Positions 19,194-45,537 are shown, numbered from the stretch's first letter. The stretch is DNA of 57,165 nt from Candidatus Zambryskiibacteriota bacterium (GCA_016180955.1 JACPAD010000005.1:1-57165); one strand, 5' to 3'. Notes: generated by a model from the sequence alone, not told the origin. Numbers and translations: made by a program.

Positions 19194-20156
19194 TTATAGA
19201 CCAGAATTAATTTTTTTAACTAATTTATAAGCATTCCCCCACTTCAGCATTCCTTGATACGAAGCAGTCGACTTCTGTGAAATATTCTTCAGCATCCTTC
19301 TCTTAGCCACCGTTCTCAAAACTCTATGGTCTGGGAAATGCACCCAGCCAAGAAAGTCTACTCCGGAAGAAAGGGTTTTGATAAATACTTTGTCTGGGTG
19401 AAGCTTCAGTTTAAGTTCACTCTGTAAGAAATGTACGATATATCGTATAAATACCTCTAGCTCTGATTTGTTTTGGGAGAAGAACACGAAGTCGTCAGCA
19501 TAGCGGATGTAATGCTTGGCTTTTAGTTTGTGCTTCACAAACTGGTCGAACTCGTTCATGTAGATATTGACCAAGAGCTGGGAGGTGAGGTTGCCAAGTG
19601 GCAGACCTTTGCCTGGAGCGGTGTGGAAACTTTCAATGATTTGGAATAAGAGCCAGTTTATATTTTCATCAGGAATGTATTTTATAACGATATATCGTAG
19701 TAAATTGTGGTCGATAGAGGCGAAGAATTTTTTAATGTCACATTTCAAAACCCAGCATTGCTTTGTGTTGTTCTTGGAGACTTTGTGTGAGAAAGACTCA
19801 AATCTCTCCATTGCTTTGTGCGTGCCTTTGTTCAAGCGACAGGAATAGGAGTCGGAAATAAACTTCTTATCGAAGTACAGATAGATGATTCGATGGATAG
19901 CGTGATGCAAAAGCCTGTCTCGCACAGAAGCTTTGTGAATATTCCTTGGCTTAGGGTCTGAGATGTTGAAGGCAGAATAACTACTATGCCGATAGGTCTT
20001 GTTTAACAAACCCAAATGAAGACTATAAATATTTTCTGAAAGATTTTCAGAGAACTCTGCCACATCTTTGCGCTTTCTCTTGCCTTTAAGAAACTCCACC
20101 CAAGCGTCAAAAAGATTTTCCAAAGATATGATACGCTCATACATATGACTGAGCAT
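19194..20156 (-). CDS. DGR reverse transcriptase 1
   Basis: KPRNIHKASVRDRLLHHAI, DIKKFF, GLPLGNLTSQ, YIRYADDF, GVDFLGW; 320 aa with no maturase X or endonuclease domain. Confidence 0.95.
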   Translation of the reverse strand: MLSHMYERIISLENLFDAWVEFLKGKRKRKDVAEFSENLSENIYSLHLGLLNKTYRHSSYSAFNISDPKPRNIHKASVRDRLLHHAIHRIIYLYFDKKFISDSYSCRLNKGTHKAMERFESFSHKVSKNNTKQCWVLKCDIKKFFASIDHNLLRYIVIKYIPDENINWLLFQIIESFHTAPGKGLPLGNLTSQLLVNIYMNEFDQFVKHKLKAKHYIRYADDFVFFSQNKSELEVFIRYIVHFLQSELKLKLHPDKVFIKTLSSGVDFLGWVHFPDHRVLRTVAKRRMLKNISQKSTASYQGMLKWGNAYKLVKKINSGL

Positions 20157-20531
20157 AGCAATTTACCCCCCCCCGCAAAAGCACCGTCGGTGCTTTTTAA
20201 GGCAAAGGAGACATACTCGTATTGGCTAAAGCTTTACCGAAAAATTGCTAAGCCCGAACGCTTTGGTATTGGAGAAAAGATAGATATTCTGTTTCTGGAA
20301 ATCTTGGAATTAATGCACTCCAGCCGTTATGCTCCTGTTTCTGAAAAACTGCCGTACTTGGAAAAAACTATAGGGAAAATAGATAAAATTAAATTCTTTC
20401 TGGAAATCTCTTGGGAAAATGAATTAATGAGTAGCGGAGAATACGCTCTGATACTTGAAAGACTTGAGGGCATGGGTCGGGAGCTGGGCGGCTGGAAGAA
20501 AGGAATAGTAAACAAAAACCCCATGAGATAG
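20145..20531 (+). CDS. avd: DGR accessory variability determinant (Avd-like four-helix bundle), antisense to TR/RT
   Basis: KPERFGIGEKID...LE...GRELGGW; overlaps the RT1 start head-to-head; C9 tract 20166-20174 encodes PPP. Confidence 0.88.
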   Translation: MTEHSNLPPPAKAPSVLFKAKETYSYWLKLYRKIAKPERFGIGEKIDILFLEILELMHSSRYAPVSEKLPYLEKTIGKIDKIKFFLEISWENELMSSGEYALILERLEGMGRELGGWKKGIVNKNPMR

Positions 20532-20551
20532 CATTTCTATATCTCACGGGG
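20519..20551 (-). promoter_or_regulatory. Conserved hairpin 3' of TR1 (spacer element)
   Basis: CCCCATGAGATA...TATCTCACGGGG; near-identical to 44309-44341 with compensatory changes. Confidence 0.75.
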
Positions 20552-20560
20552 AAAATTCAC

Positions 20561-42525: not shown

Positions 42526-42973
42526 TATATAAATCGATAGTTAGTCCGTCGGCGAAGCTGGTGGCAATCTCGTCAGAGCGTTCGTTAGCTTTGTCTCCAT
42601 TGTGTCCTGCTACATATTTCCATTCAATCTGCTGACCTTCGGTAACCAGAAGAAGCATTTGCCATAAATCTTTATTTAAAACCTGCTTTTTCCCCGCAGT
42701 TTTCCAGCCTTTTTTCTGCCAATTCTTGACCCAAAGCGTGATACCCTTCATGACATATTCAGAATCTGTATTGACTTGTATTTCTGAAAATTGAAAATTG
42801 TTAATTGCAAATTCAAGCGAGCGTATCACAGCTGTCAATTCCATGCGATTGTTGGTCGTGTGAACTTCATCCCCGCCTATCTCCATCACTCTCTCTTCGC
42901 TCGCGATAATCCCTGCCCATCCTCCCGGTCCGGGATTCCCCCTCGCCGCCCCGTCTGTGTAGATGGTTACCAT
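42494..42973 (-). CDS. rnhA: Ribonuclease HI
   Basis: YTDGAARGNPGPGG, TTNNRMELTA, TDSEY, VAGH....NERSD. Confidence 0.96.
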   Translation of the reverse strand: MVTIYTDGAARGNPGPGGWAGIIASEERVMEIGGDEVHTTNNRMELTAVIRSLEFAINNFQFSEIQVNTDSEYVMKGITLWVKNWQKKGWKTAGKKQVLNKDLWQMLLLVTEGQQIEWKYVAGHNGDKANERSDEIATSFADGLTIDLYNGPRNSYRYL

Positions 42974-43967
42974 TTGTAAATTATATCATCTACAGATTTC
43001 CTTATTTTGTAAGTATTCCCGTGTTTCAACATTCCTAAATACGAAACCAGCGATTCGGAAGAAAATTTTTCACTCAATCTTTTAAACATTCTTCTTTTTG
43101 TCGATGTTCTCAACACTCTATGGCCAGGGAAATACACCCAACCCAGAAAATCCACTCCGGAGGATAAAGTTTTTATAAAGACCTTGTCTGGATGAAAAGA
43201 AAGTTTGAGCTTGTTTGCTAGAAACTTTTCAAGAGCAGTGAGTAAAAGTGTTAAATACTGGCGGTCGCTGGTAAAAAAGACGAAATCATCAGCGTAACGT
43301 ATGTAATACTTTATTTTGAGATTATGTTTCGCGAACTGGTCAAATTCATTCATGTAGATATTGACTAAAAGCTGGGAAGTGAGGTTGCCAAGAGGCAAGC
43401 CTTTGCCAGGCACAGAATGGAAACTTTCTATTATCTGGGTTATAAGCCAATTAACATCTTCATCTGGAATGTATTTTGTAACGATATATCGTAGTGAATT
43501 GTGGTCGATAGTGGCGAAGAATTTCTTGATATCACACTTAAGTATCCAGCATTGCTTGGTGTTGTTCTTGGAGACTTTGCGGGAGAAAGACTTAAATTTC
43601 TCCATGGCTTTATGCGTACCTTTGTTTAGTCGGCAAGAGTAGGAATCGAAAATAAACTTCTTATCGAAGTAGGGATAAAGAATTCTATAGATAGCATGGT
43701 GCAAAAGCCTGTCCCGGACGGAAGCTTTGTGGATATTCCTAGGCTTGGGATCGGAGATGTTGAAAGTGTGGTAAGCGGAGTGCTTATATGTCTTATTTTT
43801 CAAATCTTCGTGTAGAGAAATAATGTTATCCATCAAGTTTCTCTGGAAAAGCTGGACATCTCTTCTCTTTCTCTTGCCATTCAGGAATTCCTGCCAAGCT
43901 TCGAGAAGATTTTCGAGCGAGATGATATCATCGTATGTATGAATACACCTTTTAAAGCCCCCCCCAA
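42967..43967 (-). CDS. DGR reverse transcriptase 2 (true start upstream of the ORF-track start)
   Basis: YIRYADDF intact; the frame is open upstream through HTYDDIISLENLLEAW; TTG 43967 is in frame only with G9 (G8 here), otherwise only CTG 43980 or ATT 43944 are available. Confidence 0.9.
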
Positions 43968-43973
43968 CGGATT

Positions 43974-44321
43974 TTGCCAGTCTTTGTTTATCTCAAGGAG
44001 TTGTATATTATCTGGCATCTCAAGTTTTATAAATTCCCGAAGAATTCGCGATTCTCAATAGGTATAAAGATTGACTCTTTGTTCGTGGAGACAATAGAAG
44101 AGGTAGCTCTGGCCAGTTTTACGCAAGATTCAGAAAAAATGGCGCATATCAAACAAGCTCTAAGTCTAACAGATACCTTGAAGATATTTCTACAAATCGC
44201 ATGGGAATTGAAACTTCTCGAAGTAAAGCATTATGCGGAAATATCAGAGAAAATGGATGCTGTGGGGAAAATGCTGGGTGGATGGTACGGACAAACTTTC
44301 AAACAAAACCACGTGAGATAG
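43974..44321 (+). CDS. avd: DGR Avd-like protein 2, antisense to TR/RT
   Basis: FPKNSRFSIGIKID, LQIAWEL, VGKMLGGW; TTG start as assembled, ATG 43939 in frame with C9. Confidence 0.87.
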   Translation: MPVFVYLKELYIIWHLKFYKFPKNSRFSIGIKIDSLFVETIEEVALASFTQDSEKMAHIKQALSLTDTLKIFLQIAWELKLLEVKHYAEISEKMDAVGKMLGGWYGQTFKQNHVR

Positions 44322-44341
44322 TATTTCTACATCTCACGTGG
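44309..44341 (-). promoter_or_regulatory. Conserved hairpin 3' of TR2
   Basis: CCACGTGAGAT...ATCTCACGTGG, 11-bp stem overlapping the avd stop; 9 nt from the TR end, as in DGR1. Confidence 0.78.
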
Positions 44342-44350
44342 AAATAAACA

Positions 44351-44487
44351 TATTTGCGGAGACGAAACACGACCTCGTTCTCAAGATTCCACTTGTCATC
44401 CGGATTCGTTCAGTTGGTGTTGAGCCACGTCTTGCCGTCATCGTTCCGGTTGAGTTTGAACACGTACGGATTGCCGTCGGAATCGGT
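44351..44487 (-). repeat. DGR2 template repeat (TR2)
   Basis: 15 mismatches versus VR2, 13 at TR adenines; contains an in-frame TGA at 44410-44412. Confidence 0.95.
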
Positions 44488-44615
44488 TGTGTGCATTAAT
44501 CCGCCAAAGCCACTGCCCTTCAAATGTTCGATAGGCTGAATCTTATCCGTGATCGTAATCACTTAGAGAAATGCACCAAGTTTGTTTATTTTTTAGTTAT
44601 TTTATAATCACTCCG

Positions 44616-44751: not shown

Positions 44752-44807
44752 GTAATTCAAGTGATTCAAGGGACCGAAGCCTTAACCGAAGTCCGAAGAA
44801 CCAAAAC

Positions 44808-45476
44808 CTACTTGCGGAGACGAAACACGACCTCGTTCTCAAGATTCCACCGGTCATCCGGATTCGTTCAGCTGGCGTTGAGCCACGTCTTGCCGTCATC
44901 GAACCGGTGGAGTAGGAACACGTCCGGATAGCCGAAGGAAGCGGTGATCTGCTTCATGGCCGTCCAGCAGACGGTTCCCTTCGGCTGATCCTTCCATTCC
45001 CGACGGAGAGCGGGCCCATCGCCAGGTTCGCAGAGTGCGTGGCCAAGTTCTTCGATCCGCTTCCAGAGTTCGCGGGTCGTCGGCGGTTTGGTGAAGCCGA
45101 GGTCGCGGACCGAGGACTTGCCGAACCTGACGGTCTCCTTATTGCCCGGCTTCCACGCGTCCTTCCCCATGATGTTCCGTGAGTACTCGGAGGCGAACAT
45201 GCCGTTCGCTTCGATCTCCGCGACGAGCTCATCCTTGGACTTGCCACCGACCTCGATCTCGAGGAAGACCGGGAACACCGGCCCTTTCTGCGAGAACTGG
45301 CGGATGAGTTCGCGGAGTGCCGGCGCGACCGCCGGATTCTCGTTGAAGTACTGACCGCAGTCCTCATCGAGAGCGACGGCATTGTACGCGTCGCGGAAGA
45401 GATCGGTTGCCTGTCGACCCTTGCGGCTATCAGCCGTGAGACCAGACGCTTTCAACGTTTTCGACGTCGACATCAT
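44808..45476 (-). CDS. DGR2 target protein, prematurely stopped at TGA 44868-44870 inside the VR
   Basis: AAGGA SD before ATG 45476; 202 aa to the TGA; the frame continues TNPDDRWNLENEVVFRLRK* to TAG 44808. Confidence 0.88.
44809..44945 (-). repeat. DGR2 variable repeat (VR2)
   Basis: Copy of TR2 at offset +458. Confidence 0.95.
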
Positions 45477-45537
45477 CTTTATCCTTTCTCTAGCTGTCCT
45501 GATGCGGGAAACCCGCACTCATCAGCTATCTTTACAT

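Follow-up and report, generated by a model that had tools for sequence, protein, structure and literature searches.

Can a single homopolymer switch two genes of a DGR on and off together? The question is raised by the second DGR (DGR2) of the window, as the whole analyzed stretch of 57,165 nucleotides from Candidatus Zambryskiibacteriota bacterium (GCA_016180955.1 JACPAD010000005.1:1-57165) is called here, in which a run of eight C residues lies between avd and RT, two genes read in opposite directions from overlapping 5' ends. The first-pass annotation had proposed that one base in this run decides whether both genes are in frame and that the tract is a phase-variable master switch for hypermutation, with a homopolymer sequencing error or simple conservation of Pro codons as the alternatives. 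The window belongs to a genome of 488 kb in 7 contigs, 85% complete, whose closest relatives are Patescibacteria/CPR MAGs. DGR2 has the components of a B3-type DGR: a DGR-type RT, an Avd, and, in a target gene, a VR2 that is 87% identical to TR2 and departs from it mostly at TR adenines. In both cassettes of the window, TR and RT flank an avd on the reverse strand, in the B3 layout TR-(avd)-RT that is typical of CPR and that they share with the CPR DGRs surveyed by Wu et al. 2018 (PMC5758913). A conserved inverted repeat (CCACGTGAGAT...ATCTCACGTGG, 44311-44342) overlaps the avd stop codon just 3' of the TR on the other strand, as does a matching one in DGR1 (20521-20553); these elements may function as bidirectional terminators or as DGR RNA structures. 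The features of the loci are collected in Table 1.

Table 1. Features of the DGR loci discussed in the text; positions refer to the window unless a locus or contig is named.
Feature	Position	Strand	Remarks
DGR1 avd box TGATACGCT	20129-20137	+	
DGR1 tract C9/G9	20166-20174		In frame in avd1, 128 aa, ATG 20145
RT body (DGR2)	42967-43959	-	Pfam RVT_1, E 8.5e-25; conserved N-terminus FKRCIHTYDDIISLENLLEAW starts directly after the run
Extended -10-like box for avd, TGATATCAT	43923-43931	+	Embedded in RT codons D-D-I-I
ATG, probable leaderless avd start	43939-43941	+	7 nt past the box; complementary to the conserved RT His codon
C8 (plus strand)/G8 (minus strand) tract	43958-43965		Common to the 5' ends of avd and RT
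TTG adjoining the run	43965-43967	-	RT start of the first-pass annotation; same frame as ATG 44018
Avd body (DGR2)	43974-44321	+	115 aa from TTG 43974, the first canonical start; Pfam bAvd, E 2.9e-13
ATG, probable leaderless-type RT start	44016-44018	-	Antisense of Avd Trp-His (TGG CAT)
TATAAA, -10-like hexamer	44026-44031	-	7 nt upstream of ATG 44018
TR2, template repeat	44346-44494	-	
VR2, variable repeat	44804-44952	-	At the 3' end of the target gene 44868-45518
Third DGR (L003)	G000 contig C4:3338-4664		avd minus, RT plus; outside the window
Replacement repeats	L093:1390-1480, L110:1425-1470, L061:1470-1485		
N-terminus types tied to in-phase relatives (expected)			MNTPFKAPPQR... and MPDNIQLLEINK...

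The head-to-head overlap of avd and RT at DGR2 extends for about 80 nt and contains the C8 tract, as the first-pass annotation had it. On the plus strand, ATG 43939 opens in the C8 state a 40-aa ORF that ends at 44061 and is not in the Avd frame (ORF table), while the Avd frame itself has a TAA directly 5' of the run, is open from 43956 on and across the run, and finds its first canonical start 8 nt past it, at TTG 43974. On the minus strand, the RT open frame spans 341 aa, and its body is intact apart from the run; in the G8 state, it reads *DKQRLAKSVGGGFKRCIHTYDDIIS / ...*DKQRLAKSVGGGFKRCIHTYDDIISLENLLEAW, with no ATG, GTG, or TTG between the stop and TTG 43836, a start that would cost about 40 conserved residues. 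A start at ATT 43944 is rejected, since relatives have TGT, GGT, TCT, or GCT at this codon, and the gene caller recovers the RT at G8 only from an internal ATG, as a protein of 288 aa (P0001; RT call on L034). The claim that C8 leaves Avd a TTG and the RT only CTG/ATT is borne out. TTG 43967 and ATG 44018 share one frame, which stops after 45 aa in the G8 state. One added C joins both genes at once, ATG 43939 to Avd, which would read MNTPFKAPPQRILPVF..., and TTG 43967 and ATG 44018 to the RT, which would read M(PDNIQLLEINKDWQNPL)GGGFKRCIHTYDD... (hand translations), so that the effect predicted for C9 on ATG 43939 and TTG 43967 holds upon translation.

The two frames are bound to each other by the geometry of the junction. 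On the opposite strand, each of the candidate starts, ATG 43939 and ATG 44018, reads as a His codon within the frame of its partner, so that one tract length sets both frames and the coupling is strict, in agreement with the proposal that RT and Avd switch together. Specifically, both genes of DGR2 in the window are out of frame by the same base, and in the related locus L005, where the geometry is the same, both are in frame at G8 with one extra base in the adjacent T-run. At DGR1, the C9 tract is in frame within a 128-aa avd, as claimed beforehand; on the minus strand, TAAATT (20165-20160) directly follows the run and precedes the RT1 ATG (20144-20142). The third DGR has a G9 between avd and RT (C4:3680-3688), and its RT frame is joined across the run to an upstream ATG (MIGATFFPSGGGPDRSIFNHIVS).

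Tracts of this length are exceptional in the genome. G/C runs of 4, 5, 6, and 7 nt number 1227, 275, 35, and 1, respectively, with a drop of about 4-5 fold per base, and the only three runs of at least 8 nt in the 488 kb are found at the avd/RT junctions of the three DGRs, an association far beyond chance. To place the junction among its relatives, loci were pooled from the genus and the order, from 185,579 species genomes, and from metagenomes, yielding 146 non-redundant loci, 137 of them with enough upstream sequence; a G-run of 7-14 nt occupies the same spot in 119 of these 137 Patescibacteria loci, many of which are related, so that the counts are not independent events. Lengths of 9, 10, and 11 nt prevail (35, 34, and 22 loci), followed by 8 (14), 12 (6), 7 (5), 14 (2), and 13 (1). 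In three loci, the G-run is replaced by other repeats, namely (TGATTGC)12 in L093, (CTGG)8 in L110, and (GA)6 in L061. The Avd N-termini of L093 and L110 are about 93% identical by eye over the compared stretch and their repeats differ, indicating that a slippery repeat is conserved rather than a particular sequence. The alternative that Pro codons are conserved as protein fails, as each of the three possible phases of the run with respect to the upstream ATGs occurs among the loci (33, 44, and 53 of 111; 16, 33, and 31). Moreover, the flank AACGGA(A)TTTT is conserved even though the Avd frame across it differs in L026 and L027. Some related RT genes are split in two adjacent pieces or contain stops (G006:C5, G021:C9, G028:C31, G020:C14) and are possibly copies that are decayed or frameshifted at other places of the gene. 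An exact protein look-up with the 115-aa Avd returned no match, nor did a DNA pattern of the tract flank among viral contigs or metagenome contigs.

The start of avd is recorded in the codons of its partner. Across 100 loci, the bases 5' of the avd-strand ATG follow T-G-A-T-A-T-c-n-T at -16 to -8, and ATG 43939 is antisense to the His codon of a conserved RT motif, H-x-Y-x-x-I-I-S. Within this motif, 100 of 102 loci encode His by CAT (57.7% in the RT body; p 1e-21), 103 of 107 have a T-ending codon (NAT) before I-I (p 2e-16), and 100 of 135 use ATC for the first Ile (29% in the RT body; p 6e-27). Judging from this codon usage, selection acts on three synonymous sites of the RT in favor of retaining TGnTAnnnT-N7-ATG on the avd strand, and this selection, together with the leaderless signature, makes ATG 43939 probably a real, leaderless avd start. 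The retention of A over G at the first base of the ATG points to an AUG start codon and not merely to a transcription start, and the ORF from this ATG is open as far as the run in 80 of 81 loci. Gene callers at related loci place the avd start 3' of the run instead (GTG at the P0044 locus, TTG at the P0112 locus); 26 of 111 loci have no in-frame canonical avd start near the run, and about 45% of relatives have TTG at the post-run Leu codon by a hand tally, a retention that suggests that Avd may not be fully off at C8. In the window, the RT codons D-D-I-I (43920-43931) form a perfect 12-nt palindrome, GATGATATCATC, that supplies the antisense avd box. A scan for sigma-70 promoters around both tracts of the window (DGR1 and DGR2) gives no more matches than shuffled sequences.

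The genome as a whole carries the signature of such starts. Shine-Dalgarno-like motifs are not enriched before its long ORFs (13.6% vs 11.7% of random windows), and in 91 of 406 long ORFs (about 22%) the first ATG is preceded by TANNNT at a distance of 6-7 nt, compared with about 12 ORFs per other offset, from which the organism seems to rely largely on leaderless mRNAs.

On the RT side, the related loci fall into two subclasses that appear to use the tract differently. DGR2 of the window belongs to the smaller one (28 loci), which has no RT start after the run. On the RT strand, relatives have TATAAA, TATTAT, or TATCAT followed by N7-ATG; an ATG with such a box upstream of the run is found in 19 of the 28 loci of the DGR2 subclass vs 8 of 81 in the larger one (Fisher 8e-9), and the Avd residues W-H, with His encoded by CAT, in 18 of 24 vs 17 of 84. 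In relatives that are in frame, the RT begins MP(D/Q/E/S)(N/E)I...GGG(A)F(K/N)R.... The RT of the DGR2 subclass therefore has a probable start upstream of the run, to judge from these patterns. The earlier choice of TTG 43967 is right as to the frame, while ATG 44018 is the better candidate for the start itself, since a boxed upstream ATG is typical of the subclass; of 12 close relatives, 11 have a TTG or GTG next to the run, and in 3 this codon is in frame. The TATAAA box of DGR2 is weaker than the avd box, as the conserved final T is missing.

In the larger subclass, the run is followed by an ATG of the RT itself in 81 of 119 cases, most often at 13 nt. Of 116 loci, 41 show TANNNT exactly at +1 past the G-run, compared with about 3 for each other offset; the ATG follows 7 nt past the hexamer, and the spacing to an xGGYAA farther upstream has a mean of 17.2 nt (sd 1.6). 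By this arrangement, the run of the larger subclass would lie in the spacer of the RT promoter, and a spacing role is plausible for the RT there only; at DGR2 in the window, no TANNNT follows the run and no significant sigma-70 match is present. RT proteins at least 90% identical have the same body, with N-termini that are either joined through GGG to an upstream start or truncated, the truncated forms, found for instance on 29, 14, and 6 contigs, beginning from an ATG inside the gene. A function of the poly-G as the Shine-Dalgarno site of the RT was considered and rejected, given a genome without an SD signal and a run-to-ATG distance ranging from 4 to 53 nt; likewise, compensation between run length and the adjacent spacer is not significant (r = -0.30, p = 0.17). 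In P0127, a DGR1-type RT N-terminus (MYERIISLENLF...) is fused to the body of another RT cluster, and in L244, the RT body of one cluster is joined to a different junction sequence, which suggests recombination between paralogous DGR cassettes near the tract.

The length of the tract varies in nature, even between near-identical populations. Independent assemblies of single aquifer populations were gathered by exact-protein look-up and may share raw data; with this proviso, a locus of the DGR2 subclass (cluster 3) has G9 in 8 assemblies and G10 in 4, with 0-1 mismatches over 1.6 kb of flanks in the 8 loci compared. The P0044 locus, a close relative of DGR1, has G9 in 4 assemblies, G10 in 5, and one further variant with a T-to-G change, and here the change in length shifts the avd call from 130 aa, with an ATG adjoining the RT start, to 115 aa. 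Similarly, the P0112 locus has G11 in at least four assemblies and G10 in at least one, with L210 differing from L212/L213 in nothing but tract length across about 2.1 kb, and the pair L090/L169, of 99.5% identity, has G11 vs G8. A control locus with a decayed G5 is identical in all 10 assemblies. One contig-naming scheme runs through assemblies whose lengths differ by sample, hence the pipeline is probably not the cause. The first-pass annotation had asked whether tract length varies within CPR DGR populations, and among the related loci near-identical assemblies differ as G9/G10, G10/G11, and G8/G11; the one other assembly of DGR2 itself has C8, like the window.

The distribution of phases is skewed away from the in-frame state. 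The avd alleles are in frame in 16 of 80 loci (p 0.006 vs one third), with 33 and 31 in the other two phases, and the RT alleles of the DGR2 subclass in 4 of 19. At the P0112 locus, in cluster 3, and in the L090/L169 pair, neither of the lengths seen is in frame with the leaderless ATG (by hand), indicating that in several populations much of the length change proceeds without ON/OFF toggling. In line with this deficit of in-frame alleles, Roux et al. 2021 (PMC8144416) found the Patescibacteria clade of DGRs to be less active than average. The deficit fits a diversifier that is off in most cells, and it fits equally well a model in which the out-of-frame tract attenuates expression.

Taken together, the selection on the starts, the coupling of the frames, the conservation of the tract, and its change in length between otherwise identical populations support, at the level of sequence, the earlier reading of the tract as a phase-variable master switch. 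A tract length that sets both frames, in a run that is kept and length-variable in relatives, probably amounts to a random on/off switch, and a contingency-type slippage switch for hypermutation, with DGR2 of the window in its off phase, is the explanation that is favored here with somewhat better than even confidence. At DGR2, the C8 run exceeds the approximately 7 nt from which a G/C homopolymer is prone to slip, and it is located in a 5' coding position where a change of one unit alters the frame, as is expected of a contingency locus. In the proposed mechanism, C8/G8 would be a hypermutable repeat in the overlap of two divergent, probably leaderless ORFs, and slipped-strand mispairing during replication would change it by about one base. 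C9 (or C6, or C12) would allow both genes to be read, and C8 neither, yielding instead the 40-aa and 45-aa peptides, and in most members of the population the diversifier would be off, with a minority having it on. The practical result for the window would be that DGR2 is represented by an off allele and DGR1 by one in phase for avd. Domains of MutS (PF00488) and MutL (PF01119) were not found in the 85%-complete genome; with no mismatch-repair genes detected, slippage would be favored, and homopolymers would be especially unstable. If the switch operates in this way, switching would be reversible and frequent in vivo, off alleles would make no functional Avd or RT, and the system would have been selected for gating hypermutation.

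The main rival to the switch model is an attenuator, in which slippage of the RNA polymerase or the ribosome on the run gives a small in-frame share of product at any DNA length, and the out-of-frame state is the normal setting of low expression. It accounts well for the predominance of out-of-frame alleles and the equal frequency of their two phases (33 and 31, vs 16 in frame), for length changes that often connect two out-of-frame states, and for RT and Avd bodies that stay intact and conserved in out-of-frame loci. However, the best-documented cases of slippage by bacterial RNA polymerase concern A/T runs, and the run here is made of G/C. Programmed ribosomal frameshifting finds no fixed direction of shift or stimulatory motif, as the window needs a shift opposite to that of L008, L013, and L014 and the two out-of-frame phases are balanced; moreover, heritable alleles of DNA length do exist. 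The attenuator, which could coexist with a switch, is accordingly judged unlikely as the explanation of the locus. The chance is small that the tract is a non-coding spacer, with Avd starting from TTG 43974, the RT starting near or after the run, and tract length tuning transcription as part of a promoter or leader. This reading takes its strength from the larger subclass, in which TANNNT at +1, the ATG 7 nt on, and the approximately 17 nt to xGGYAA are those of a promoter and most RTs have their own ATG after the run (81 of 119), and from the gene callers that use a post-run TTG or GTG for avd. It is weakened at DGR2, which has neither TANNNT nor a canonical RT start after the run, by the selection for ATG over GTG on the avd strand and an ORF that is open to the run, by the lack of a Shine-Dalgarno signal to serve an internal TTG, and by the 26 of 111 loci devoid of an in-frame canonical avd start near the run; in addition, the 34-84 nt repeats of L110 and L093 cannot form a 17-nt promoter spacer.

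Two further readings would deprive the C8 state of any regulatory meaning. DGR2 may be dying, one deletion having knocked out both genes in a tract that has no switching role: neither gene has an in-frame start, the genome holds two other DGRs, and the RTs of some relatives are split or interrupted by stops. Yet the ORF bodies are intact apart from the run, with a 341-aa RT frame and a Pfam-positive Avd, the TR/VR pair still has adenine-specific differences, and the sole lesion falls on the one site that is length-variable in relatives, so that irreversible decay is very improbable. An error of sequencing or assembly, with C9 as the true length, would repair both genes at a stroke, and homopolymers are prone to such errors. 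The Logan assembly of SRR12113430, however, also has C8 and matches the window at 100% identity across 3,916 nt, which argues against an assembler-specific error, with the proviso that it may derive from the same reads as the window assembly. Furthermore, the out-of-frame state prevails among related loci sequenced in many projects, and no error need be invoked; this alternative, which the first-pass annotation had raised, can be given hardly any weight.

Among known systems, the slippage switch favored here has its mechanistically nearest relatives, by analogy, in the poly-G/C contingency genes of Campylobacter, Neisseria, Haemophilus, and Helicobacter (PMC8355987, PMC5084427), in which a G/C run of 8-11 nt is likewise located near the 5' end of an ORF, a one-base change shifts the frame, different lengths coexist in close relatives, and such tracts are otherwise rare in the genome. 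Unlike in these genes, the DGR tract would gate a machine for targeted hypermutation rather than a surface or restriction gene, and it serves, on its two strands, two divergent genes that overlap, appear leaderless, and show a predominance of out-of-frame alleles. For the control of two divergent genes by a single repeat, the nearest case is that of the H. influenzae hifA and hifB genes, for which van Ham and colleagues are said to have described, in 1993, a (TA)n repeat between the -35 and -10 elements of overlapping divergent promoters. That repeat reportedly acts on promoter spacing only, whereas that of the DGR2 subclass would act on reading frames. Hypermutable repeats with reversible frameshifts outside the classical pathogens are also reported for phage contingency loci in a preprint (PMC12633550), where they concern other genes and hosts and show no dual-strand coupling. 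Two surveys of DGRs (PMC5758913, PMC8144416) make no mention of homopolymers or phase variation, and a search for DGRs together with phase variation, homopolymers, or contingency placed no DGR paper among its top-ranked matches, nor did a search on DGRs in CPR bring up such a mention; in the literature searched, no published description of the DGR junction tract was found.

DGRs are the most extreme natural diversifiers of proteins, and the control of their activity is hardly understood, least of all in the uncultivated CPR, where they are abundant. The dual coding of promoter and start in the synonymous sites of the partner gene, in a genome with no SD signal, matters for gene calling in CPR, and the reliance on leaderless mRNAs matters for gene calling throughout the genome to which the window belongs. 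If the switch is real, annotation pipelines would routinely truncate or miss the starts of avd and RT in CPR genomes. Extended to the whole Patescibacteria DGR clade, a claim that is held tentatively and with slightly less than even confidence, a hypermutable repeat read on two strands, with leaderless starts in the codons of the partner gene, would gate targeted hypermutation, in such a way that most cells would be frozen and an ever-renewed minority would diversify a surface protein, a two-tier form of bet-hedging maintained through second-order selection. A slippage switch, if conserved, would account for the seeming inactivity of many CPR DGRs in population data (PMC8144416), and tract length would then be a simple handle to predict which populations are diversifying.
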